A program made the translations under genes and the position numbers. The notes below the pieces were generated by a model, which saw only the letters and a list, made by a program, of their open reading frames with translations, ran no database searches and was not told where the DNA came from. This document shows, piece by piece, positions 1-57,300 of a stretch of 64,000 bases of DNA. Source of the DNA: Minisyncoccia bacterium (GTDB lineage: Bacteria; Patescibacteriota; Minisyncoccia; Phycocordibacterales; UBA9973). The stretch spans positions 128,453 to 192,452 of the forward strand of contig JBAQFO010000014.1 in assembly GCA_049287305.1 (NCBI GenBank). Reading direction: 5' to 3'. The stretch's first letter is position 1, and each line of letters opens with the position of its first letter.

Positions 1-1093
1 AACAACCAAAAAGATTATTTGAGTTGAAGCAGTGGTCTGAGTAGTAAATATCATGAGAATCCACTATCTGCTGAGAGCCAATTACTTTATTGCTATCCAG
101 CATAGTGAGGACCTGGTAACATTCTGACCCTTCTCCCGTAAAAGACATGTCGTATGAGTCAATCGCACTTCTTACAGTAAAACAAAATTTTGAGTTCTCG
201 CCGCTCTTAATGTCAAAAGAATGATGAACATTGTGGGCATTGTATATGTGGTTTCCCGAAACACCGTTATTGTGAGAGCCAAAAAAAGCACGTTGCGGAA
301 TTTTTGTTCGTAATATATCACGTTCCTTCAAAATATACTCTAAACTTATTTTATTGCTTAATGGGTATTTCAGCACAAATTCTTTATATTTTTCTTTTGT
401 CACTGGTTTGTTAAAAATATAGTAAGATTTATTTACAAGACCTACACAACCTATGCAGTTAAGGCAGTTTCTACAGTCAAAAAGTCCGATACTGTCTACA
501 CAGCTCTCGCATTCCTGGGAATAAGATAGTTTTGTTGATCCCAAGCAATCAATGCATTCATAACAAGATTCTGATTTAAATAGATATAAATTGTCTATTG
601 AGTCTCGGCTATTCCAAACAATGTGGCCATAATCACAATCTTCATCGTCTAATCCGCCAAACACAAGGTAGCAATTCTTGCTTTGATTTATCTGATTGGA
701 ATACTCACAGTTTTCCGTCTGAGAATTCATAACAGCAACTCGCGGAACTAAGTTAAACAACTCTCTAAGCTGACTAAAAAACGGTTTCTTTTCGTCATAC
801 TCTATTCCGTAGGTCATAGGATTCCAGTCATCAGCCCACCACTCTGAAATAGAATATACTGGGAACAGAACATCCGGATTATACACGGTAACTATCATCT
901 CGCCAGATTTACTTGAGGGTCGTTTATATAATGTTTTAAAATTTCTAAAAAGCGTCCTTATTTGCTGTCTGCACATAGGACATTTTTCCGGAGAAGGCAC
1001 TCCCATTTTTTCATAAAATCCAAAATCATCAGGCTCTATTAAAAAGTCGTTTTTACAATTTTGACATATTCGGTTTTCGGTTTTATGTTCCAT
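1..1093 (-). CDS. Cysteine-rich zinc-ribbon protein, paralog of 40807..42513; 3' end runs off the window (not in the ORF track)
   Basis: Minus-strand ATG at 1091-1093. My manual translation reads MEHKTENRICQNCKNDFLIEPDDFGFYEK... then ...QTENCEY... and ...YIFNKPVTKEKYKEFVLKYPLSNK, in frame with no stops seen in the parts I checked. The N-terminal CxxC...C..C ribbon and the internal CxxC-x-NC-x-GC modules are collinear with the 568-aa ORF at 40807..42513. Confidence 0.6.
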   Translation of the reverse strand, partial: MEHKTENRICQNCKNDFLIEPDDFGFYEKMGVPSPEKCPMCRQQIRTLFRNFKTLYKRPSSKSGEMIVTVYNPDVLFPVYSISEWWADDWNPMTYGIEYDEKKPFFSQLRELFNLVPRVAVMNSQTENCEYSNQINQSKNCYLVFGGLDDEDCDYGHIVWNSRDSIDNLYLFKSESCYECIDCLGSTKLSYSQECESCVDSIGLFDCRNCLNCIGCVGLVNKSYYIFNKPVTKEKYKEFVLKYPLSNKISLEYILKERDILRTKIPQRAFFGSHNNGVSGNHIYNAHNVHHSFDIKSGENSKFCFTVRSAIDSYDMSFTGEGSECYQVLTMLDSNKVIGSQQIVDSHDIYYSDHCFNSNNLFGC

Positions 1094-1102
1094 ATTTTTA
1101 AT

Positions 1103-1528
1103 CTACGGGATGGCTGAAATTAAATTACTAACTGATATTTCAAGTTGATTCCTTACGGTTCTTGCAAAATCTAGGTTCTGGTTAAATGGATCAGGTATTT
1201 CCCAAAAAGTTACTTTACTGCTCTGTTTTACATATTCAGGAATATTTTCACTTGGGTTTATAACTATTACTTTATCAACTCCATTAAATATTTCTGGCGT
1301 TACTTGTTTTCTTGCACAATTAGAAACATCTATCCCTATTTCTTTCATAACTTCTACTATATTCATGTCTTTATCTTTTAGTTTTTGTCCTTCTCTATTG
1401 GAATTCTCTTTTACCACTTTTGTGCCAGCGGAGATTGCAACACCTTTTCCCTTGAAAAGATTATTAAAAATTGCTTCTGCGATCTGACTCCTTGCTACAT
1501 TGCCTGCACAAATAAATAAAATTTTCAT
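1103..1528 (-). CDS. Low-molecular-weight phosphotyrosine phosphatase / ArsC-type arsenate reductase
   Basis: N-terminal CAGNVARS P-loop (CX5R-S) in ILFICAGNVARSQIAEAI. Size of 141 aa is typical. Confidence 0.65.
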   Translation of the reverse strand: MKILFICAGNVARSQIAEAIFNNLFKGKGVAISAGTKVVKENSNREGQKLKDKDMNIVEVMKEIGIDVSNCARKQVTPEIFNGVDKVIVINPSENIPEYVKQSSKVTFWEIPDPFNQNLDFARTVRNQLEISVSNLISAIP

Positions 1529-2178
1529 AAATATGATTGTAGAATAATTTCTAAAGCTTTTAAGATATCTTCTTTTTTTATAAATAACTTATTTGCTCTG
1601 TCAAACTCCGGCATTAGTTCTATTGCCTCTTCTGTACACGAACAATGAACAAACAAATACGGAATCGTAAGTTGTTCTTTCTTTGCTGCGAGTAGAGTCC
1701 TGTACACCCAACTATTGCATGCATACTCACCCGCATCCTCAGAGATTTTTGATTCAAAAGGAATATTCGCTTCAGCAAAAAGTTTCTGCATGTTTTCTGT
1801 ATTCCATGCGGACAAATTGGTTTGCAGTTTTTCTTTTTCGGGTCGTGATGGGTCCAGCGGTTTATTATTTTCAAAAGAAGTAAGATATTTTTCATTGTTT
1901 ATCCAATTTATTCCATATCGCTCTAAACGAAATCCCTTTGCCTCAGATGCCATTCCAAAAGAAATAATTACATCAGCGCCTATCTCTTGTGCTTTTTTTA
2001 CTATTACTTCTCCCGGATTTTGTTCCCCTTCAGGGAATAATACAATTGCAGGAAAAATCAAAGAGTAAATTTCATGGTCTGCAATAACTTTTCCATCTGC
2101 AGATAGTGCCAGCCATTTAGTTGGGTTAGTTAAATATTTTCCGAAAGTTTCTGATCCTGTTATAAGCGCCTTTTTCAT
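1525..2178 (-). CDS. pcp: Pyroglutamyl-peptidase I (peptidase C15)
   Basis: ALITGSETFG N-terminus. Cys in EYACNSWVY and His in LFVHCS sit at the positions of the Pcp catalytic Cys/His. 217 aa. Confidence 0.55.
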   Translation of the reverse strand: MKKALITGSETFGKYLTNPTKWLALSADGKVIADHEIYSLIFPAIVLFPEGEQNPGEVIVKKAQEIGADVIISFGMASEAKGFRLERYGINWINNEKYLTSFENNKPLDPSRPEKEKLQTNLSAWNTENMQKLFAEANIPFESKISEDAGEYACNSWVYRTLLAAKKEQLTIPYLFVHCSCTEEAIELMPEFDRANKLFIKKEDILKALEIILQSYL

Positions 2179-5093
2179 TTCATTGAATTAGAAAATTTAT
2201 GATAAATAATATGGAGTTTTTTTACGTTTGTTTCGACTACTTTATTTTTGTCGGTAATAATAAACTTATCGTTATTTGTGACCTTGCCCAGCATGGTGTG
2301 CGGTATGTTCTTCACGACTTTTAGGAATGCAGAGACATTTTTAGGAGATACAGAAACCAATATCCTTCCTTGGCTTTCGGAAAATAGTTTTACTTCCGCG
2401 GAATTTGCCCCTCCCTGTAAATTTTTGATGGAAATATTGCATCCAATCATTCCTCCAACTAATGCCTTTGCAAGCGCTATTGCTAATCCTCCCGAAGTCA
2501 CTGAAAGCGAAGATGCTGCCAGTTCTTTTTGACTAATTTTTTCTACAGCTTTGTATATTTTTATATTTTTTACGGCATCAACTTTTGGCACGTTATTGCC
2601 GACATAACCCAGCATCTTGTAATATTCTCCCCCACCAAGCTCGTCATTAGTTTCTCCCAGCACATAAATTAAATCCCCAGGATTTTTAAATTCAGGTGAG
2701 ATAGTTTTATTTAAATTAGGCATTACCCCAATCGCGGATATTAAAAGAGTGGGGGGAATAGATATAGCCACCGAATTTCCACTTTCATCGTAGCCGTTAA
2801 AATCATTAAACATACTGTCCTTTCCGGAAATAAAAGGCGTGCCATAGCTTAGGGCGTAGTCGTAACATGCCCGGACCGCGCTTAAAAGCTGGCCTAAGCG
2901 CACGGGGTCTCCCGATGAACACCAGCAAAAGTTGTCCAGTATTGCCAAATGAGACATTGTGCCGCCGGACGCCACGGTGTTTCTAATGGCAGTATCAATC
3001 GCGCAAGCAGCCATATCATAGGTATTTATGTCTCCATAAGAAGGATAAGAACTTGAAGTAACAACGGCAGCTTTGGGGGAATTTAATATCGGGTGGAATA
3101 CTTGGGCGTCAGTATTGATGCGTCCTCTGCCAGAAAGGGGTTTAAGAACAGAGGAGGCTTGCACTTCGTGGTCGTATTGTTCCGAGATGAATGAAAATCC
3201 GGCAATATTTTTACTTCCCAGCAACATTTCCAATTCTTCGGTGTATGAATTTTTATTTGAAAATGTCGGCTCGGGATGGTTATGAATAACGGGTGCTGTA
3301 AATAATTGCTGTGAAGGTCTGCCGTCATGCAGGAATCCCATATCAATATCCATAATTTTTTTACCCGTGTATTTTACAATACATTTTCCCGAATTATTAA
3401 ATTTCCCAATAACAGTTGCTTCCACTCCCCTTTTGTCCATTAACTCCTGAAATATTTTCCAGTTATTTTTCGGCACAGAGAGAGTCATTCTTTCTTGTGA
3501 TTCAGAAATCCAAATTTCCCATGGACGAAGCCCCAGGTATTTTAAAGGAACTTTTTCTAAGTCCACCTCCACTCCCCCACACTCTTTTGCCATTTCAGCA
3601 ACCGAGCAAGACAATCCTCCGGCACCGTTGTCGGTGATACTGGTGTATAAGCCCATATCTCTCGCTTCTTTAGCAATCGCATCGCTTAATTTTTTTTGAG
3701 TTATGGGGTCTCCTATTTGGACAGCCGTTGCCGGAGAATTTGAATCCATTGCTACTGATGAAAACGTGGCTCCATGAATCCCATCCAAACCCACCCTTCC
3801 GCCAACCATTACGACATAATCCCCATTTTGTGCTGTTTTAAGATGAGAAGGCGCATTTTTTACTTTCCGAGGGATAATTCCTATAGTTCCGGCAAAAACT
3901 AGTGGTTTGGCGCGGTATCTGTCGTCAAATTTCAAAAAACCGGAAAGAGTCGGAATGCCTGAGCAATTTCCGCCAACGTTTATGCCTTTTATAACTCCGT
4001 CCATGATACGTTTCGGGGGAAGCATAGCTTGTGTCATCGCCCTATCCTTAAAATATTTTGTATCGTCTTCGGGCCGTCCCAAACAAAACCCGTAAAGGTT
4101 GGCGACAGGCCTTGCTCCCAATCCGAAACCAATGGTGTCCCTATTTACTCCGCCTATTCCCGTTATGGCTCCGCCAAAAGGGTCTAGAGCTGACGGGCTA
4201 TTATGAGTTTCTACTTTGTGGGTAATTAGATAATCTTTATCAAAAACTATCCCTCCGGAGTTGTCGGAAAATACCGATACGCAAAAATCTTTTTCTCCTT
4301 TTTGTTTTCGTATTAAATTTGTAGCGCCTTTGATGTATGTTTTATAAAGTCCGTCCACCACATCGTCTATCGGGTTGGCGAAAATAGTGTGTTTGCAATG
4401 CTCCGACCAAGTTTGCGCCAAGGATTCTATTTCAATATCTGTAGGGTTTCTTCCTAGCTCTGTAAAATATCTTTGAATTGCTTGCATTGACGGCAAGTCA
4501 AGAGCGAGCGGACCTCGTCGCTGCCCCTTCTCGTCTTTGACTCCTTCTTTGCCTATCCGCATCAACTCTTCTTCTCCTTCCGAAGCAATCGGAATTTCTA
4601 TAACGGGTTTGGATTTTTCAAGGATTACTTCCGGCGCCACCAGCGGAAAACCTTTTTTGTTTTTGATTTCACTAAAGTTTGCAACATAAGCTCTTTCTAT
4701 AAGAGGATTATAGAGAGACAAAGCCAACTTCTCCAGCTCACCTTCGTCTAGTTTTTCCGTAACTAAGAAAATTTTCGAAGTATAAACTTCCAGGGGGTCA
4801 CTACCCTTGAGGCCTAAAAGGTCAACAATTGTTTCCTTTGCGGTGTGTCCTGCGTTATCTGTCACCCCGGGCTTAAATCCGATTTCAATAGCGTGATGGA
4901 ATTTACCAACTTGAGGAAAAGAGTCTATGGAAAAGATTTCTATGGTGGGATTTGTGAGAGCTTGGGCGACCTTCTGTAATTTTTCCTTGCCTAATTTGTG
5001 GGTGATTAGATAGGATAAGACGGCGCTATTCTTAGCAAGACTTTTGTTTTTCGCCACGTATATCCGAGAAATCATATAGCTATAATATAGCAT
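2175..5093 (-). CDS. purL: Phosphoribosylformylglycinamidine synthase subunit PurL with a fused PurS-like N-terminal region
   Basis: FGAM synthase motifs SEHCKHTIF and KVETHNSPSALDPFGGAITGIGGVNRD. 972 aa with an N-terminal GVTDNAGHTAKE PurS-like segment. No purQ is adjacent. Confidence 0.8.
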   Translation of the reverse strand: MLYYSYMISRIYVAKNKSLAKNSAVLSYLITHKLGKEKLQKVAQALTNPTIEIFSIDSFPQVGKFHHAIEIGFKPGVTDNAGHTAKETIVDLLGLKGSDPLEVYTSKIFLVTEKLDEGELEKLALSLYNPLIERAYVANFSEIKNKKGFPLVAPEVILEKSKPVIEIPIASEGEEELMRIGKEGVKDEKGQRRGPLALDLPSMQAIQRYFTELGRNPTDIEIESLAQTWSEHCKHTIFANPIDDVVDGLYKTYIKGATNLIRKQKGEKDFCVSVFSDNSGGIVFDKDYLITHKVETHNSPSALDPFGGAITGIGGVNRDTIGFGLGARPVANLYGFCLGRPEDDTKYFKDRAMTQAMLPPKRIMDGVIKGINVGGNCSGIPTLSGFLKFDDRYRAKPLVFAGTIGIIPRKVKNAPSHLKTAQNGDYVVMVGGRVGLDGIHGATFSSVAMDSNSPATAVQIGDPITQKKLSDAIAKEARDMGLYTSITDNGAGGLSCSVAEMAKECGGVEVDLEKVPLKYLGLRPWEIWISESQERMTLSVPKNNWKIFQELMDKRGVEATVIGKFNNSGKCIVKYTGKKIMDIDMGFLHDGRPSQQLFTAPVIHNHPEPTFSNKNSYTEELEMLLGSKNIAGFSFISEQYDHEVQASSVLKPLSGRGRINTDAQVFHPILNSPKAAVVTSSSYPSYGDINTYDMAACAIDTAIRNTVASGGTMSHLAILDNFCWCSSGDPVRLGQLLSAVRACYDYALSYGTPFISGKDSMFNDFNGYDESGNSVAISIPPTLLISAIGVMPNLNKTISPEFKNPGDLIYVLGETNDELGGGEYYKMLGYVGNNVPKVDAVKNIKIYKAVEKISQKELAASSLSVTSGGLAIALAKALVGGMIGCNISIKNLQGGANSAEVKLFSESQGRILVSVSPKNVSAFLKVVKNIPHTMLGKVTNNDKFIITDKNKVVETNVKKLHIIYHKFSNSMK

Positions 5094-5141
5094 ACAAAAA
5101 CTAAAGACAAACAGCCTTTTTTCTGCTAGAATATCCCCAAT

Positions 5142-6152
5142 ATGAAAAATATCGTGACCGTTGGCGGAGGCACAGGAAGCTACACAGTTTTGTCGGGACT
5201 TAAGAATCTTTCAAATGTTTCTTTGGCGGCGCTTGTATCTATGTCGGACGATGGAGGCTCTACAGGAATCTTGCGAGACGAGCTTGGGGTCTTGCCGCCC
5301 GGGGACGTCAGACAGTGTTTGGTGGCGCTATCTGAACATACGGACATTGTGCGTAATCTGATGGGTTACCGCTTTGACGAAGGAACCCTGAAAGGCCATT
5401 CCTTCGGGAACATATTTTTAGCAGCCTTGGAAAAAGTGACGGGTGATTTTGCGCACGGAGTGGAAGTGGCGTCTGAAATTTTGAAAATAAAAGGAACGGT
5501 AATTCCTATCACCAAAGACAAAGCCGAGCTTTTAATGAGACTCGCGAACGGCAAAATAATAGAAGGAGAAGATAACATCCAAAACGACCAGGACATACAG
5601 AAATACGGATTAGAAAAATTATATTACAGTTCCGGGGTAACTTTGAGTGAAAAGGCTAAAGACGCAATCCTGGGAGCGGATTATATAATTCTAGGTCCGG
5701 GAAATTATTACTGCTCGGTGCTGCCTAATTTGGTGGTAGAAGGATTTACGGAAGTCATTTCCAAAACCACGGCAAAAATAATTTTTCCCGTAAACCTTAC
5801 CAACAAGTTAGAGCATACGATAAATTGGAAAGTTAGCGATTACGTGAAAGATATTGAAAAATATTTGGGTAGAAAAGTAGATGTTGTGCTGGTAAACAGT
5901 GAATTACCCACAAAGGAACAGATAGAAAAATATGAATTAAAAGAAGGAGAAGGTGTTTACGTGGAAGATGATTTTGAGGACCCGAGAGTAATTCGCGCTC
6001 CCCTTTTATCGCATGTTGTATATGTGAAGGGTGTTGGGGATGTTTTGCCAAGCACAAGAGGGTTCATCCGTCACGATTCGGAAAAAATAGCCAAGTGCGT
6101 TTATGAGATAATAAATACCCGCCTGAACGACCACTCAGTCGGGCAGGAATAA
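5142..6152 (+). CDS. YvcK/CofD-family protein (UPF0052, gluconeogenesis factor-like)
   Basis: VGGGTGSYTVLSGL...SMSDDGGSTGILRDELGVLPPGDVRQCLVAL is the family signature. Confidence 0.7.
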   Translation: MKNIVTVGGGTGSYTVLSGLKNLSNVSLAALVSMSDDGGSTGILRDELGVLPPGDVRQCLVALSEHTDIVRNLMGYRFDEGTLKGHSFGNIFLAALEKVTGDFAHGVEVASEILKIKGTVIPITKDKAELLMRLANGKIIEGEDNIQNDQDIQKYGLEKLYYSSGVTLSEKAKDAILGADYIILGPGNYYCSVLPNLVVEGFTEVISKTTAKIIFPVNLTNKLEHTINWKVSDYVKDIEKYLGRKVDVVLVNSELPTKEQIEKYELKEGEGVYVEDDFEDPRVIRAPLLSHVVYVKGVGDVLPSTRGFIRHDSEKIAKCVYEIINTRLNDHSVGQE

Positions 6153-6153
6153 C

Positions 6154-6750
6154 ATGAAATACATTTTTGATTTTGATGATGTTTTGTTTAAAAACACAGA
6201 CATGCTTAAGCCTAGAATTTTTCACATAATTTCTAGAGAGGCAGGGGTGACTGAAGAAAAAGTCAAAGAACGCTACCAAAAGAATCGAATAGAATTTTCG
6301 CTCGTTAATTTCATAAAAACATTTTTTACCGAGCCGGATATGTCAAAAATAGACCACATTTTCAAGGATATAATGAGTGAAAGCCATAAATTCTTAAATA
6401 TGGAACTAATAGAAGAGATAAAGAAGATAGATAAAAATGACTTATATATTGTTACTAACGGAGAAAATGATTTTAACTGGAGCAAGTTGGCCTATAGCGG
6501 GGTAATGGAATACTTTTTAACAGAACACATTGAAGTTGTGCCAGGGTCAAAACGGGATGCAATTCATAAAATTTGCGATGCAAATCCGAACGAAGAAATA
6601 ATTTTTATTGATGACAGGGACTATTTTATTGAAGATTTGGATAGTCCCAAACTTAAACCGTTATTGTATACGAAAGAAACTAGAGCCAGCGTGCATAAAA
6701 CGTTAAGAGAACTGTCTAAGAATCGCGCTTCTGAGTTAAGAATGAAATAA
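6154..6750 (+). CDS. HAD-superfamily hydrolase
   Basis: FDFDDVLF DxD motif at the N-terminus and a later IFIDDRDY motif. Its start overlaps the stop of the upstream gene. Confidence 0.5.
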   Translation: MKYIFDFDDVLFKNTDMLKPRIFHIISREAGVTEEKVKERYQKNRIEFSLVNFIKTFFTEPDMSKIDHIFKDIMSESHKFLNMELIEEIKKIDKNDLYIVTNGENDFNWSKLAYSGVMEYFLTEHIEVVPGSKRDAIHKICDANPNEEIIFIDDRDYFIEDLDSPKLKPLLYTKETRASVHKTLRELSKNRASELRMK

Positions 6751-6751
6751 T

Positions 6752-8167
6752 CTACCTCCAATATCTTTCTACGACATGATGTTCTTCGGGGCCGGTGCCG
6801 ACGTAAATAATTTTAGCGCCTAGCGTTGCCTCTAGAAATTTTACGTAAATCAGGGCTTCTTTCGGCAGCTTGTTGCCATAATCCGAGAGTTTTCCTTTCC
6901 ATGCCGGAAATGTTTTATAAATTGGTTTTATTTTAACCCTAGATAGGTCAAAGGGAATTTTTTCCGCTTTCTTTCCGTTTATTGAGTAAGCAACACATAC
7001 TTTTATTTGTTTTAAGCCGGAAAGGACATCAAGTTTGGTTAAGACGAGTTCTGTGGCGTTATTCATTTCAATCGCGTATTTCAAAAGCGGTATATCAATC
7101 CAGCCCGTTCGGCGGAGTCGTCCTGTGGTTGCGCCTATTTCGTGCCCTGCGCGCCTAAGGGCGACACCTTGCTCAAACTCACCTTTGCTATTTAAGTCGG
7201 GAAACGGGTATTTTGTCTTCTCTTCTATGTATTTCTTATCTCTACACCAAATTGCGGATTTTTCTCCGCCGAATTCAGTTGGGAAAGGACCTTCTCCTAC
7301 CTTTGTGACGTAGGCTTTTAGTATTCCAATAGCTCCGCCTATGTAGGACGGCGCTATCCCTAGTCCGGTGCCCACACCGCTTGCTATTGTGTGAGATGAA
7401 GTGACGAACGGATAGTGTCCGAATCTTACATCAAGCAAAGCCCCCTGAGCTCCTTCCGCTATTACTTTATTTCCTTTCTTGAGCGCTTCAAGAACCATTT
7501 GAGAAGAATCTATGTTTGGTAATGAGCGCAAAAATTCTACGCCTTTAAAAAACTTAGCTTCACCCTCCTTCAATTCTTTTTTTGAAAGTTCATATCCAAA
7601 AACCTTTCGAAGGGTAGTGCGGTGTTCTTCCGTAAGAGCTTTGTATTTTGTTTCAAAGTCTTTAAAGAATATATCTCCCACTCTTAGCGCTCTTCTTAGA
7701 GTAAGGTCGGTGTAAGACGGAGAAATCCCCTTCCCTGTTGAGCCGATTTTCTTTTTACCTTTTATTTTTTCTGAAACAGAATCCAATATTAAGTGGGTGG
7801 GAATAGTTAGTATGGCGTGAGGCGAGACAGAAATTCTATTCAAATAAGAAACATGAGTTGGAATCATCTGCGCTTCTTCCAGCAACGCGCTCGGGTTTAT
7901 AACCATACCTGCCCCAAGGTGTATATGGGCTTTGCCGAAAACCCCTGATGGTATGAGATGAAACACGTAGCAAACACCTCCGTGCCATATTGTATGTCCC
8001 GCGTTATTGCCTCCCTGGAATCTCACAATTAAATCATTTTTAGACAAGCCGGAGGCTATGCGAGCCACGCCTTTTCCCTTTCCTTCGTCTCCCCATTGTA
8101 GGCCAATAATAGGAGTAATTTTTGATGCCGATTTTTTTATATTTTTTACTCCTAATTTATTTTTCAT
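6752..8167 (-). CDS. purA: Adenylosuccinate synthetase
   Basis: GLQWGDEGKGKG...RFQGGNNAGHT signature. Confidence 0.9.
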   Translation of the reverse strand: MKNKLGVKNIKKSASKITPIIGLQWGDEGKGKGVARIASGLSKNDLIVRFQGGNNAGHTIWHGGVCYVFHLIPSGVFGKAHIHLGAGMVINPSALLEEAQMIPTHVSYLNRISVSPHAILTIPTHLILDSVSEKIKGKKKIGSTGKGISPSYTDLTLRRALRVGDIFFKDFETKYKALTEEHRTTLRKVFGYELSKKELKEGEAKFFKGVEFLRSLPNIDSSQMVLEALKKGNKVIAEGAQGALLDVRFGHYPFVTSSHTIASGVGTGLGIAPSYIGGAIGILKAYVTKVGEGPFPTEFGGEKSAIWCRDKKYIEEKTKYPFPDLNSKGEFEQGVALRRAGHEIGATTGRLRRTGWIDIPLLKYAIEMNNATELVLTKLDVLSGLKQIKVCVAYSINGKKAEKIPFDLSRVKIKPIYKTFPAWKGKLSDYGNKLPKEALIYVKFLEATLGAKIIYVGTGPEEHHVVERYWR

Positions 8168-8173
8168 AATTCA

Positions 8174-9673
8174 TTATTTGTTTTTGTAGTTAGGGGCGGG
8201 ACTTACCATGAAGATGTCATGGACATGGCTTTCATCGAGACCCGCGCGAGTAATTGTGTAAAAAGAGGAGTTTCGAAGTTTTTGTATGTTTTCCGCGCCC
8301 AAGTATCCCATTCCGGCTCGAAGCCCCCCGACATATTGATGTATAACGTCCGACAGAGCGCCTTTGTATGATACATGTCCAGAAACCCCTTCTGGGACGA
8401 GTTTCGTCAGGTCGTATTGGTCCTCCTGGAAATATCTGTCCTTCGAGCCTCTTTGCATTGCGCCCAAAGAACCCATGCCTCTATATTTTTTAAATTTTTG
8501 GTCATTCATGTTTATGGTGTCGCCAGGCGCTTCGTCTGTTCCCGCGAACATGCTTCCGGCCATAACGACATCCGCTCCGAATACCAAGGCTTTTACCACA
8601 TCTCCCGAATGCTTGATACCGCCATCAGCTATGACTGGAATATTTAATTTTTTACACACCTCGTAGACGGAAGAAACCGCGGAAAGTTGCGGCACGCCCA
8701 CGCCGGACACAATTCTCGTGGTGCAAATAGAGCCAGGGCCTATTCCAACCTTAATCGCGCTGGCTCCCGCTTTCGTGAGCGCTAGGGCGGCACTACCGGT
8801 AGCCACATTACCCGCGATGATATCCAATTTAGGAAAAGCTTTTCGGATTTTTTTTACAGCATCCAATACTCCCTTAGAATGTCCATGTGCCGTATCTACG
8901 CATACGACATCAACTCCTGCCTTCACCAAAGCTTCTACTTGAACCAAGACATCCGCTCCGGCTCCAACGGCTGCGCCGACACACAAACGACCAAGAGAAT
9001 CTTTTGTGGCGTTTGGGTATTCTTTTGATTTTGCTATATCGCGATAGGTAATCATTCCAACCAGTTTGTTGTTTTTATCCACCAATGGGAGTTTTTCTAT
9101 CCCGTATTGGCTGAACAGATTGTTGGCTTCCTCAATGTTGGTTTTTGGACCGCCGGTAATAAGTTTAGTGGTCATTATATTTTTTATAGGAGTTGATTCG
9201 TCTTTTTGAAAACGCATGTCGCGATTGGTGACAATTCCCACAAGTGAGCCGTCTTCTTCCACCACCGGGAATCCTCCGAAGTGGTATTTTTTCTGGATAT
9301 TAAAAACGTCGCCGACAGTGGCGGTAACGGGAATAGTTATCGGGTCTATGATTCGTCCTGATTCGTATCGCTTTACCCGCTCTACTTCGTGCGCTTGGTC
9401 TATGATGCCTAAGTTTTTGTGTATTATGCCTATTCCTCCCAATTCCGCTATAGCTATGGCCATCTTGGACTCCGTAACGGTATCCATTGCCGCGGACATA
9501 AATGGAATTTGAAGGCTGATGTTTTTTGTGAGTTTGGTTTTAGTAACAACATTTTTCGGAAGGACTTCGCTGTAATTCGGCACCAAAAGCACATCGTCAA
9601 AAGTAAGTCCTTGCCCTAAATCTTTTGGGGCGGAGTTCTTGCTTGTTTTTGAAGAAGTGTTTTTGTTGGGCAT
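8174..9673 (-). CDS. guaB: IMP dehydrogenase with CBS pair
   Basis: [12 protein letters not shown]-terminus, a CBS-domain insert, and the catalytic-loop region GSICTTR. Confidence 0.9.
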
Positions 9674-19017: not shown

Positions 19018-19058
19018 AATTTTAACCCGTCTAGGTCCTTCGATACTAAACTAAACTG

Positions 19059-19129
19059 CTGGGAGACTAGGAATCGAACCTAGATTAAAGGCTTCAAAGG
19101 CCTCTGTCCTACCGTTAGACGATCTCCCA
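19059..19129 (-). tRNA. tRNA-Gln(UUG)
   Basis: Manual fold of TGGGAGA TC GTCT AACGGTA GGAC A GAGGC CTTTGAA GCCTT TAAT CTAGG TTCGATT CCTAG TCTCCCA G. U1:A72 is typical of bacterial tRNA-Gln. Anticodon UUG. Confidence 0.8.
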
Positions 19130-30520: not shown

Positions 30521-30604
30521 GCCCAGGTGGCGGAATTGGTAGACGCGATAGACTCAAAATCTATTGATGGCAACATCATGAGAGTTCGATTCTCTCCCTG
30601 GGCA
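30521..30604 (+). tRNA. tRNA-Leu(CAA), class II long variable arm
   Basis: GCCCAGG...ATAGA CTCAAAA TCTAT...GAGAGTTCGATTCTCTC CCTGGGC A. Confidence 0.8.
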
Positions 30605-30699
30605 CATAGCAAGTAAATTTATTTGCTTACGCGGAGGAATCGAAAGGATTTTCGTTGTCGAGCAAAGTGAGACCGAAAATCACCTGGCTATGTAATAGC

Positions 30700-38589: not shown

Positions 38590-38758
38590 TAAATAATTTA
38601 TTTAAACAAAGATTAAGGGAATTGGTCACGAGTATTTTTCTGCTGAAAAATCTCTCGACCCCGCCTCGCGCCGTCGCGCTCCGGCTTTCGATTAGCCCTA
38701 TTGCCACGCAATGATGATATGCGCGCATAGTCATTTAGACTATGTTTACATATCATTG

Positions 38759-38829
38759 CGGGCGATGAGGGAATCGAACCCCCGACATCGGTTTTGGAGA
38801 CCGAAGTTATGCCACTTAACTAATCGCCC
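38759..38829 (-). tRNA. tRNA-Trp(CCA)
   Basis: GGGCGAT...TCGGT CTCCAAA ACCGA...GGGGGTTCGATTCCCTC ATCGCCC G. Confidence 0.75.
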
Positions 38830-40806: not shown

Positions 40807-42513
40807 TTAATATACTTCCTGTTTATAACAAGTCTCGCAATAAATTATCGGTGCGTAAGATTCGGTGTACACGGTTTCCACTTCCACACTGCATTTGCCA
40901 CAATTGCGTTTTATTAATTTCAACGGCGGGCGTTTGGCAATCCGGCGCATGTGTCGGACATCAAAACAAACCCGAGGTAAAGGAAGATTCATTCTCCGGT
41001 AAAAAGCCAGCTCGTTCGGCGTAATGCGATATGCCCCGACAGAAAATGGGCTATCTTTTTCACCGCACTCAATTACTTCTTTAAGGACGGAATCCTCAAC
41101 TTCCTCTATTGTCTCGGGCAGTTCCCCGCTTTTTATTGTTGTTTCATAATTCTTTTTTTCTTTATCTTTCCACCTATAACCTTTTTGTAAAGCTTCTTCT
41201 TTTGTCAAAGGGGAGAAATCGTAGGCGGCAGTTTCGTTATAGGCGAAAGTGGAAAGCTGTTCGGGAAAATGTTCCCCAAACCCATGCTTGAGTCCTCTAT
41301 TATCAACGAACGGCATATCTTTCATGTGCTCTATTATCTTGGTAACAAGAGCTTCGTAATCTTCTTTGGTGTATTTTTTATTTAAAATAGAATACTCGCC
41401 TTTCTTTAAGCCAATACATCCGAAGCAATTTCCAGCTCCGGGACAGGAGTCGCAGTAAGTAAGGTCATGAGCGCCCATCCAGCACTGGGTGGAAAAGGAA
41501 ATTCTGGAACAATTAATTCCGCAGTTCTCGGATTCATATATCAATTCCGAATTATTCCCCCACTCAAAGTAGTCCATACAGTCTTGGGCATCAAAAACCG
41601 AAAAAAGAAACTTGCCGTCCTTAACACTAAGTGAATCAAATGATTGGTGGACGTTTTTGGAATTAGAAAACCAATTACCGGAAACATTTTCAGATTTCAC
41701 CGAGTTAATTGCTTTTTGCGGGAATTTTTTTCTGAATTCGGGAAATTCTCTCTCCATTTTTTCTATTCCGGTTGCGGTGTGAAGCCCAAGTTCCTTCAAT
41801 TTTTCAAAATACTCTTCTTTGGAGTAAGGCTCGTTCCAAATATGAAATTCTTTATTCACAAGGTTTACGCAACCGACGCAATTGGAACAATTCCTGCAAG
41901 AATACAAGAAAGAGGAGTCCCGGCAATTACTGCTTTCCTGGGAGAATCTAGTATTGTAAGAATTCTCGCAGTTAATACATTCATAGCAAAGTTCTAAGTT
42001 GTTAACCCAGGCGCAGTCACTAGTGTCTTTTATTCTTTCAACCACATAAGAATAAAAAGAATCCGTCGGACTCGTTGCCCTGAAAACCATGTAAGAATTC
42101 TTTGGGTCGGTGACTCTGTGAACGTAAGGGCTGTTCACGGACATCCCCTGACGAACCAAGGACATCTTCGGAACCTTGTTTAGAAGCTCTTGGAATTGTT
42201 CAAAGAAGGGTTTTGAAAAATCATAATCAATTCCATAGTCATATGGATTCCAGTCGTCGGAATACCATTCCTCTGTTTCGTAAACAGGAAATGGGGCCTC
42301 AATCGGATACATGGAAAAAATGTCTTTTCCGCTTAAGTCGCTTTTCCGCTTATATAAAACTCTTTCCCCGGTGCTTGCCAAACGTCGGACGAAGCGGCAA
42401 TCCGGACAAAATGTCGGGGGCAGAACTTTTATTTTTTCGTAAAATCCAAAATCATCCGTTTCTATAATAAAATCTTTTTTACAATTTTGACAATTCTTTG
42501 TTTCGGATTGCAT
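40807..42513 (-). CDS. Cysteine-rich protein with terminal zinc ribbons and internally duplicated CxxC/NC/GC modules; paralog of 1..1093
   Basis: N-terminal CQNCKKDF...CPDCR, C-terminal CGKCS...CETC. Two internal modules of form C..C.NC.GC(V/I).L.NK...I.N..Y(S/T)KE(E/D)Y. Confidence 0.55.
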   Translation of the reverse strand: MQSETKNCQNCKKDFIIETDDFGFYEKIKVLPPTFCPDCRFVRRLASTGERVLYKRKSDLSGKDIFSMYPIEAPFPVYETEEWYSDDWNPYDYGIDYDFSKPFFEQFQELLNKVPKMSLVRQGMSVNSPYVHRVTDPKNSYMVFRATSPTDSFYSYVVERIKDTSDCAWVNNLELCYECINCENSYNTRFSQESSNCRDSSFLYSCRNCSNCVGCVNLVNKEFHIWNEPYSKEEYFEKLKELGLHTATGIEKMEREFPEFRKKFPQKAINSVKSENVSGNWFSNSKNVHQSFDSLSVKDGKFLFSVFDAQDCMDYFEWGNNSELIYESENCGINCSRISFSTQCWMGAHDLTYCDSCPGAGNCFGCIGLKKGEYSILNKKYTKEDYEALVTKIIEHMKDMPFVDNRGLKHGFGEHFPEQLSTFAYNETAAYDFSPLTKEEALQKGYRWKDKEKKNYETTIKSGELPETIEEVEDSVLKEVIECGEKDSPFSVGAYRITPNELAFYRRMNLPLPRVCFDVRHMRRIAKRPPLKLIKRNCGKCSVEVETVYTESYAPIIYCETCYKQEVY

Positions 42514-57186: not shown

Positions 57187-57258
57187 GAGCGTGTAGTTCA
57201 GTGGTAGAACGCTGTCCTGATAAGACAGAGGTCGATGGTCCGATTCCATCCACGCTCA
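57187..57258 (+). tRNA. tRNA-Ile(GAU)
   Basis: GAGCGTG TA GTTC AGTGGTA GAAC G CTGTC CTGATAA GACAG AGGTC GATGG TCCGATT CCATC CACGCTC A. Confidence 0.8.
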
Positions 57259-57300
57259 CAGACAAAAAACAAAAAACCGCATTCCTGCGGCTTTTTGTTT
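57259..57300. terminator. Bidirectional terminator
   Basis: AAAAAACCGC-attcct-GCGGCTTTTTGTTT. Confidence 0.65.

Follow-up and report, generated by a model that had tools for sequence, protein, structure and literature searches.

The window analysed here, a stretch of 64,000 nucleotides of contig JBAQFO010000014.1 (positions 128,453 to 192,452), contains two genes of a single family of cysteine-rich proteins, whose relatives recur beside genes for VirD4/TraG-like coupling ATPases. The first gene, which we call copy 1 or type A, encodes 568 aa, and the second, copy 2 or type B, is cut by the window edge (Table 1); the full 555-aa copy 2 was recovered from the source contig (L001:6725-8389). Copy 1 is a 100% match to database protein P0001 (WAV15_04385) and copy 2 an exact match to P0121 (WAV15_04160); both are labelled 'hypothetical protein', and both occur in one metagenome-assembled genome (MAG) labelled Minisyncoccia. 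A preliminary description of this DNA had reported two paralogous proteins of ~570 aa with shared cysteine motifs, and all of those motifs are present, including the N-terminal motifs of the two copies (CQNCKKDFIIETDDFGFYEK and CQNCKNDFLIEPDDFGFYEK) and the repeat motifs of copy 1 (CRNCSNCVGCVNLVNKEFHIWNEPYSKEEY at aa 206-235 and CDSCPGAGNCFGCIGLKKGEYSILNKKYTKEDY at aa 354-386). The N-terminal frame of copy 2 within the window begins MEHKTENRICQNCKNDF.

Copy 1 lies in a co-oriented string, holB-frr-rseP-[copy 1]-M24 peptidase-ddl, with intergenic gaps of 29 nt upstream and 2 nt downstream, and the order holB-frr-rseP-gene is kept in three further loci (L003, L007 and L031). Copy 2 sits after genes for a C15 peptidase and a low-molecular-weight (LMW) phosphatase, and on the source contig it lies within a purine operon, with the LMW phosphatase on one side and purQ on the other. 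The housekeeping contexts named in the preliminary description are therefore real, but they understate the family, which has thousands of members, forms arrays of up to 8-9 genes and typically neighbours a VirD4/TraG-like ATPase. The two copies are 41% identical over 365 aa (BLASTP, E = 5e-89), and each has a separate set of orthologues in other genomes, at 60-83% identity. Together, this identity and the separate orthologue sets indicate that the two window genes are ancient paralogues and not an assembly duplicate. The sole point in favour of an assembly or binning artefact, or of a recent duplication, is that two similar genes occur in one window, and we regard that reading as practically eliminated by the 41% identity, the orthologues of each copy, their differing contexts and a GC content that is similar to the flanks in both cases.

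Table 1. Features in the window; coordinates are window positions, and aa numbers of protein parts refer to copy 1.
Feature	Coordinates	Strand	Description
Copy 1 (type A)	40807..42513	(-)	ATG start, 568 aa, complete open frame
N-terminal finger pair	42298..42513	(-)	aa 1-72; site 1 and a degenerate second ribbon
Module 1	41791..42210	(-)	aa ~102-241; leading helix, ~9 12-residue coils, cap motif, helix
Module 2	41341..41760	(-)	aa ~252-391; duplicate of module 1, Cys ladder more degenerate
Linker domain	41083..41313	(-)	aa ~401-477; conserved, pLDDT 85-97
C-terminal finger pair	40810..41082	(-)	aa 478-568; sites 3 and 4
Copy 2 (type B)	1..1093	(-)	first 364 of 555 aa; gene cut by window edge
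tRNA-Gln (TTG)	19058-19129		
tRNA-Leu (CAA)	30521-30605		
tRNA-Trp (CCA)	38758-38829		
tRNA-Ile (GAT)	57187-57259		

The protein consists of a finger pair, two consecutive modules, a conserved linker domain and a second finger pair that is homologous to the first. Module 1 and module 2 align over 139 columns with a probability of 100% (HHalign, E = 4.7e-40), in agreement with the internal duplication noticed in the preliminary description, while a control alignment of module 1 to aa 401-477 yields a probability of 1%. The N- and C-terminal finger pairs are likewise homologous as whole pairs (HHalign, probability 99.8%, E = 8.7e-30), and these profile alignments show two nested duplications, one of the modules and one of the finger pairs. 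Module 1 ends with the cap motif NLVNKxYxIWNxxYSKEEY followed by a helix, and in module 2 N378, alone among all residues, is fully invariant across 150 cluster representatives. The linker domain carries the motifs WGxFFP, SPFAYNE and PLTKEEA...G..W, and has no Pfam match and no homologue of known function. AlphaFold2 (AF2) modelling, which the preliminary description had proposed as a check, produced models that are confident as a whole, with a predicted local distance difference test score (pLDDT) of 83.5 for copy 1 and 82.3 for copy 2, each with a predicted template modelling score (pTM) of 0.84. The product of the family is soluble, has a length of ~550-600 aa, and is predicted to have neither a transmembrane (TM) segment nor a signal peptide. 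It is mildly acidic (median pI 6.1) with basic finger pairs (pI 8.8 and 9.0), contains a median of 34 Cys (range ~27-43) and terminates in a folded Cys4 finger ending ...CYxQEVY.

We then quantified the conservation and co-variation of the cysteines across 481 non-redundant family members. The terminal fingers contain up to four Cys4 sites. Site 1 (C8, C11, C36 and C39), a treble clef, is CCCC in 450 of 481 members (94%) and has its four Cys in both window copies. Site 2 (positions 58, 61, 79 and 82) is CCCC in 128 members (27%) and is otherwise lost, with C58 often remaining; the pairwise correlation of Cys at positions 61, 79 and 82 is r = 0.98-1.0, and the site is gone in both window copies. 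Site 3 (483, 491, 516 and 519, plus H521) is CCCC in ~64% of members and is also lost in an all-or-none manner (r = 0.98 for C491 and C519), being reduced in type A to C483 and C516, plus H521. Site 4 (C538, C541, C559 and C562; C-x2-C-x17-C-x2-C) is CCCC in 470 members (98%). Because the sets are kept or lost together, they are read as metal sites, and they behave as structural zinc sites.

The terminal fingers resemble several known zinc-ribbon models, and the N- and C-terminal ribbons proposed in the preliminary description are recognized in relatives of the window genes. The zf_Tbcl model (PF13451, cut-off 24 bits) scores 18.2 bits in copy 2 (E = 0.0025) and has no match in copy 1, but is passed by P0179 (27.5 bits), P0239 (25.1 bits) and P0213 (25.0 bits). 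The zf_Tbcl_2 model (PF23477, cut-off 27 bits) is passed by P0143 (28.7 bits) and P0179 (29.1 bits); copy 1 has no match, and the scan of copy 2 covered its first 364 aa, which leaves its C-terminal finger outside. These matches lie at aa ~7-44, ~467-509 and ~517-554 of the relatives, and among 84 diverse members searched at E <= 0.01, 22 match zf_Tbcl and 19 match zf_Tbcl_2. Both family fingers share with the two models the pattern C-x2-C...FY...P-x-P-x-x-C-x-x-C-R; the models, however, cover <25% of the family protein, have no counterpart to its central ~400 aa and carry no assigned function. A few family members are named 'zinc-ribbon domain containing protein' by NCBI.

The last finger and TIGR04272 proteins (for example, A00184 and A01980 of Methanosarcina mazei) share the C-x2-C-x17-C-x2-C spacing, together with the motif 'RP..(V/I)YC..C'. 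The likeness is one of pattern, however, as neither window copy nor a four-site member reaches the 36-bit cut-off of TIGR04272, and none has an NCBIfam match. Small proteins that carry the pattern CxxC-x17-CxxC bind zinc, as measured by inductively coupled plasma mass spectrometry (PMC12704099). In a profile search of the PDB, the last finger weakly matches the second finger of CRP-type LIM domains (E = 0.006-0.05), to which it aligns through 'W..C..C....L......YC..CY'. This match is weak and partial, and the His/Cys pattern of the first finger is unlike that of LIM. Pfam LIM matches one of the 84 members (E = 0.0017, weak for an 84-protein scan). A LIM domain consists of two contiguous zinc fingers, C-x2-C-x16-23-H-x2-C-x2-C-x2-C-x16-21-C-x2-(C/H/D), of which only the second aligns here (E = 0.006-0.49).

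The central cysteines follow different rules. They are confined to a three-residue register: the autocorrelation is below zero at all lags other than multiples of 3, and amounts to 0.68 at lag 3 and to 0.59 at lag 12. The module consensus stacks as ~9 rows of 12 residues, [NS]-x-[ND]-C-x-x-C-x-x-C-x-x, and the β-bridges of the AF2 model of copy 1 recur at 12-residue intervals. From the register, the stacked consensus and the modelled bridges, each module is predicted to be a tight β-solenoid with 12-residue coils and an inward ladder of Cys and Ser. The 'CxxC-x-NC-x-GC' motif corresponds to the last solenoid coil plus the cap, and not to a ligand motif. Two coils have Cys at all four inward positions (CxxCxxCxxC). 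The quartet at 206-215 reads CCCC in 72% of members, and in many members the quartets are broken singly (CCCS, LCCC, SLCC and others). Most Cys have been lost from module 2, which is otherwise conserved.

Solenoid Cys are exchanged one at a time with Ser, Leu, Val or Ile, and their co-variation is weak (r <= 0.5). Because of these single replacements and the weak co-variation, the solenoid Cys look like core-packing residues and not ligands, and the metal- or redox-related role that the preliminary description had suggested for the proteins is not supported for these central Cys. On the same substitution and co-variation patterns, we rejected an iron-sulfur reading of the central Cys and consider a disulfide reading unlikely; the CxxCxxCxxC spacing differs from the CxxCxxCxxxC(P) motif of a 4Fe-4S ferredoxin site, and there is no conserved Pro and no Fer4 Pfam match.

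The predicted coils recall the antifreeze protein of Tenebrio molitor, whose β-helix has 12-residue coils with an internal Cys ladder; family coils likewise have 12 residues, with a small inward residue, mostly Cys, at each third position. Faint precomputed flags for the antifreeze family (PF02420) occur on a few members, but hmmscan at E <= 1 finds no such match on the flagged members, and a PDB profile search at E <= 10 recovers only LIM fingers. The family also differs in having no signal peptide, and its solenoid Cys pairs co-vary at r <= 0.5, compared to 0.98-1.0 at its zinc sites. We consider the resemblance an analogy.

The preliminary description could not place the proteins in a named family, and our searches agree with it: neither window copy (copy 2 over 364 aa) has a Pfam or NCBIfam match above cut-off, and no characterized family emerged. 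The central ~400 aa have no match in Pfam, NCBIfam, the PDB or BFVD, and across the 84 diverse members Pfam recognizes terminal ribbons only, plus one fusion. In that case, P0377 (731 aa), Pfam recognizes a GNAT acetyltransferase domain (~180 aa, E = 3e-08) at the N-terminus; the fusion may be genuine, but is more probably an artefact of gene calling in which two genes were merged. A single-sequence search of the PDB found nothing, as did Foldseek searches of the PDB with both AF2 models; Foldseek against BFVD returned only weak matches to phage zinc ribbons. The family is thus built of known module types, treble-clef ribbons and a β-solenoid, and as a whole it is unnamed. A defence system was rejected, PADLOC having no match for either copy, and a phage origin was rejected, no relative being found in IMG/VR. 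The family, its arrays and their linkage to coupling-protein genes are not described in the published literature that we searched, and the CPR-C4 paper is unrelated to it.

We now turn to the size and distribution of the family. More than 5,792 matches exist in 90% clusters, all annotated hypothetical, and a profile search of 50%-identity clusters yields 5,248 at E <= 1e-3 and 2,250 at E <= 1e-30; the top 150 clusters are nearly all 530-600 aa long and are aligned almost end to end. With one genome taken per GTDB species, relatives are encoded at 575 loci or more. The lineages named among the best 80 matches are Nomura-, Staskawicz-, Lipton-, Jorgensen-, Sungii-, Moranii- and Brennerbacteria and Parcubacteria RAAC4, and the family is found mainly in Patescibacteria of the Parcubacteria/Paceibacteria type. 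A search with a divergent member adds MAGs labelled Gracilibacteria. Strict confinement to the candidate phyla radiation (CPR) was rejected, as one single copy lies on a 3.26 Mb contig labelled Bdellovibrionota (GC 57%; L163:10001-11614) and another on a 1.16 Mb contig that encodes flagellin (L165:10001-11665). Horizontal transfer or a wider ancestral distribution could account for such copies.

To describe gene neighbourhoods, we fetched 82 loci (83 sources including the window) and searched them with a hidden Markov model of the family. The 82 loci contain 206 members, with two or more copies in 51 loci and 8-9 in the largest arrays; five loci (L078, L075, L074, L068 and L024) each hold 6-9 co-oriented copies within 13.7 kb. 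The median identity of a member to its best copy at the same locus is 43.5%, and to its best copy in another genome 58.9%, so that 94% of members are nearer to a copy elsewhere than to a neighbouring one; at 48% identity the members form ~49 groups. These values indicate that the array paralogues are ancient, and a recent lineage-specific expansion, as in an arms race, was rejected on the same comparison. Several to many such diverged copies are present per genome, often arranged head to tail. The type A orthologue is 78, 66 and 68% identical in three genomes, where the corresponding values are 83, 71 and 73% for frr, 65, 47 and 65% for rseP, and 59, 54 and 54% for holB. Type A is therefore conserved about as well as frr and better than rseP and holB. 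Purifying selection on each orthologue is strong.

When the open reading frames (ORFs) outside the family were clustered, the commonest neighbour was a P-loop ATPase resembling a type IV coupling protein (T4CP), found in 28 of the 82 loci (34 genes), followed by CutA1 (11 loci) and DnaK (10 loci). These ATPases match the Pfam models TrwB_AAD_bind, T4SS-DNA_transf, TraG-D_C and DUF87; in NCBIfam they have sub-threshold matches to TraD, VirD4 and CedD, and fall far under the TraD and VirD4 equivalog cut-offs. Against PADLOC they show only generic P-loop similarity to HerA and mad8. In 25 of the 34 cases, the ATPase gene abuts a family gene, directly or across CutA1, and nearly always on the same strand. 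CutA1, a PII-like protein of divalent-ion tolerance, repeatedly separates the soluble T4CP ATPase from the first gene of the family, at L129:9526-9828 and in 10 other loci.

The association also holds in the reverse direction. We queried an independent collection of metagenome contigs with the ATPase subfamily of highest conservation (alignment A4, in which identity to the first member is 66-84%) and obtained 72 loci with sufficient flank. A family gene lies within two genes of the ATPase in 50 of these loci and somewhere in the locus in 59. The recurrent order is secD, secF, a helix-turn-helix (HTH) gene, genes for a 463-aa protein (two TM segments) and a 174-aa protein (a single TM segment), a T4CP ATPase of ~488 aa, CutA1, a variable number of family genes and a TM-anchored T4CP of ~790 aa. 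On visual comparison, the large T4CP is similar in its N-terminal half to the 463-aa protein, which together with the ATPase looks like a split version of the large T4CP.

The coupling ATPases come in two forms. The fused form is TM-anchored and ~790 aa long, with DUF8128 plus T4SS-DNA_transf in L166 and L167, and the split form comprises the 463-aa protein (2 TM), the 174-aa protein (1 TM) and the soluble 488-aa ATPase; L129:6060-7976 with L129:8001-9479 is an example of the split form, compared to L097:13671-16046, and both forms can flank one array. Many of the neighbouring T4CPs are soluble. Two more distant lineages have the order TrmB, family gene, family gene, T4CP (DUF8128 plus T4SS-DNA_transf), one of them with a ParE toxin-antitoxin pair before the T4CP; at L166:11774-12339, a ParE toxin pair lies between the array and the ATPase. 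Arrays also carry insertions of mobile or defence-type genes, such as the MerR-family HTH and AbiEii toxin genes of L048 (L048:4943-5671 and 8454-9230). In L005, the type A orthologue itself belongs to a two-gene array with T4CP genes on both sides and abuts the downstream one.

One T4CP subfamily (subfamily ii) ends in a TIGR04272 ribbon that scores 47.8 bits against the cut-off of 36, and its pattern equals that of site 4 of the family. Its members (L046:3807-5990, L009:10688-12958 and L065:7811-10039) are soluble proteins of ~700-757 aa, with a low-complexity tail of ~250 aa after the ribbon and a conserved end, ...EVPEDVLxKILE.

On this evidence, we lean towards the family–T4CP linkage itself being functional. 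The interpretation that we prefer, held at a little less than even confidence, is that the family works with orphan VirD4/TraG-like ATPases as their clients, either adaptors or cargo, with an adaptor or scaffold favoured. A specific adaptor mechanism is a more tentative proposal. The conserved finger pairs would dock on the T4CP ATPase or on a shared partner; a T4CP subfamily carries the same C-x2-C-x17-C-x2-C ribbon. Client specificity would come from the solenoid faces, which vary from one paralogue to another. An adaptor or scaffold is favoured over cargo because the family evolves as slowly as frr and because its C-terminus is a folded zinc finger. A survey counted 5,713 VirD4-like T4CPs in 2,918 Patescibacteria genomes, of which only 148 lie near virB4, and its authors left possible an exaptation of these T4CPs to other functions (PMC12102498).

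Several observations weigh against this interpretation. Gene neighbourhood is the only source of the functional link. Family members are encoded beside coupling-protein genes, but the two window copies are not: the 64 kb window has no T4CP homologue, with copy 1 in its housekeeping string and copy 2 in its purine operon. In larger genomes that do not look like CPR, members present as a single copy lack a T4CP within 10 kb. The linkage could in part reflect inherited synteny, as the loci are related to one another phylogenetically and secDF and dnaK also recur in them. In both AF2 models, moreover, the pLDDT is only 54-76 in the repeat cores and 59-76 in the solenoid coils. The other possible readings, ranked after an adaptor, are cargo, then nucleic-acid handling, and then a metal or redox role.

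As cargo, the proteins would be effectors or surface proteins that are recognized by the T4CP and destined for the cell surface or the inside of host cells, their Cys ladder being oxidized to disulfides outside the cell. T4CP genes often lie beside those of their substrates, such as relaxases and, next to virD4, the bep arrays of Bartonella, and the tandem paralogues of this family likewise directly adjoin VirD4/TraG-like genes on the same strand. A t4cp gene has been noted near the relaxase gene (PMC12102498). Multigene arrays are typical of effector families, export without a Sec signal would take another route, and the substrates of type IV secretion systems (T4SSs) in Patescibacteria are not established. 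The 12-residue Cys-ladder solenoid is otherwise that of a secreted disulfide-bonded protein, to which the faint PF02420 flags refer. We nonetheless consider cargo unlikely. Conservation at the level of frr and ancient paralogues are unlike host-interaction effectors, and the family has no BID, relaxase or other known T4SS-signal domain. Its C-terminus is a Cys4 finger conserved in 98% of members, and not a flexible charged tail, while the absence of all-or-none pairing among solenoid Cys and their single replacement by Leu or Val argue against obligate disulfides. Some copies reside in housekeeping operons. Finally, most such T4CPs are distant from virB4 (PMC12102498), and many of those beside the family are soluble. 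In both their distance from virB4 and their scores below the TraD and VirD4 equivalog cut-offs, these ATPases differ from the coupling proteins beside known substrate genes.

Less likely again is a role in nucleic-acid handling, in which the basic ribbon pairs would bind DNA or RNA, either together with an FtsK/VirD4-type translocase or in RNA metabolism. The basic pI of the finger pairs and their conserved CR..RR motifs are consistent with such a role, as are the relationship of T4CPs to DNA translocases, the weak matches of the neighbouring ATPases to the DNA-import ATPases CedD and CedB, and the co-transcription of copy 1 with frr that is suggested by the ORF arrangement. Canonical relaxases, moreover, are nearly absent in Patescibacteria (109 in 103 genomes), and very different ones may await discovery (PMC12102498). 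The whole protein, however, is acidic to neutral; the searches recovered neither a nucleic-acid-binding family nor a motif of the nuclease, HUH or helicase type; and the nearest analogue of its last finger, by a weak match, is LIM, a protein–protein module. The many paralogues are also not obviously accounted for.

The least probable of the three is metal storage, metal chaperoning or thiol-redox chemistry through the ~27-43 Cys, perhaps with CutA1. The high Cys content, the two all-Cys coils with a quartet intact in 72% of members, and the position of CutA1, which in several loci separates the T4CP from the first gene of the family, speak for it. Such a role is improbable in view of the Cys themselves: unlike those of the terminal sites, solenoid Cys are replaced singly and co-vary weakly, module 2 is mostly without Cys yet otherwise conserved, the spacing does not fit a ferredoxin motif, and neither a thioredoxin-like CxxC context nor a match to a redox family was found.

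The window also contains features separate from the family. Patescibacteria genomes are ~1 Mb or less and are usually described as being without de novo nucleotide synthesis, and a seemingly complete de novo purine pathway (purA, purL, purQ, purF, purN, purD, purE, purM, purC and purB; window 1..8167, L001:1-16641) is notable for that reason. Copy 2 and the genes for the C15 pyroglutamyl peptidase and the LMW phosphatase are inserted between purL and purQ. An Rfam scan of the window found no family at gathering score beyond the four tRNA genes (Table 1).

In some Patescibacteria, tandem copies of this gene occupy at least 13 kb, with each copy conserved about as well as ribosome recycling factor, and in genomes of this size such an investment implies a core function. 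Structurally, the family would place two 12-residue Cys-ladder solenoids between homologous double zinc fingers, an arrangement for which the searches that we ran found no solved or viral predicted relative. The role of VirD4-like orphans and the substrates of the essential T4SS of Patescibacteria have been left open in the literature (PMC12102498, PMC12857230), and the reciprocal gene linkage names a candidate set of partners for the orphan T4CPs. More speculatively, the family and the flanking membrane-anchored and soluble VirD4/TraG-like ATPases, in fused or split form and often with CutA1, may together form an undescribed, vertically inherited and VirB4-independent system of Patescibacteria, whose paralogues would be client-specific adaptors or clients of a translocase. 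If true, such a system would explain the thousands of orphan T4CP genes that are found in these reduced genomes.

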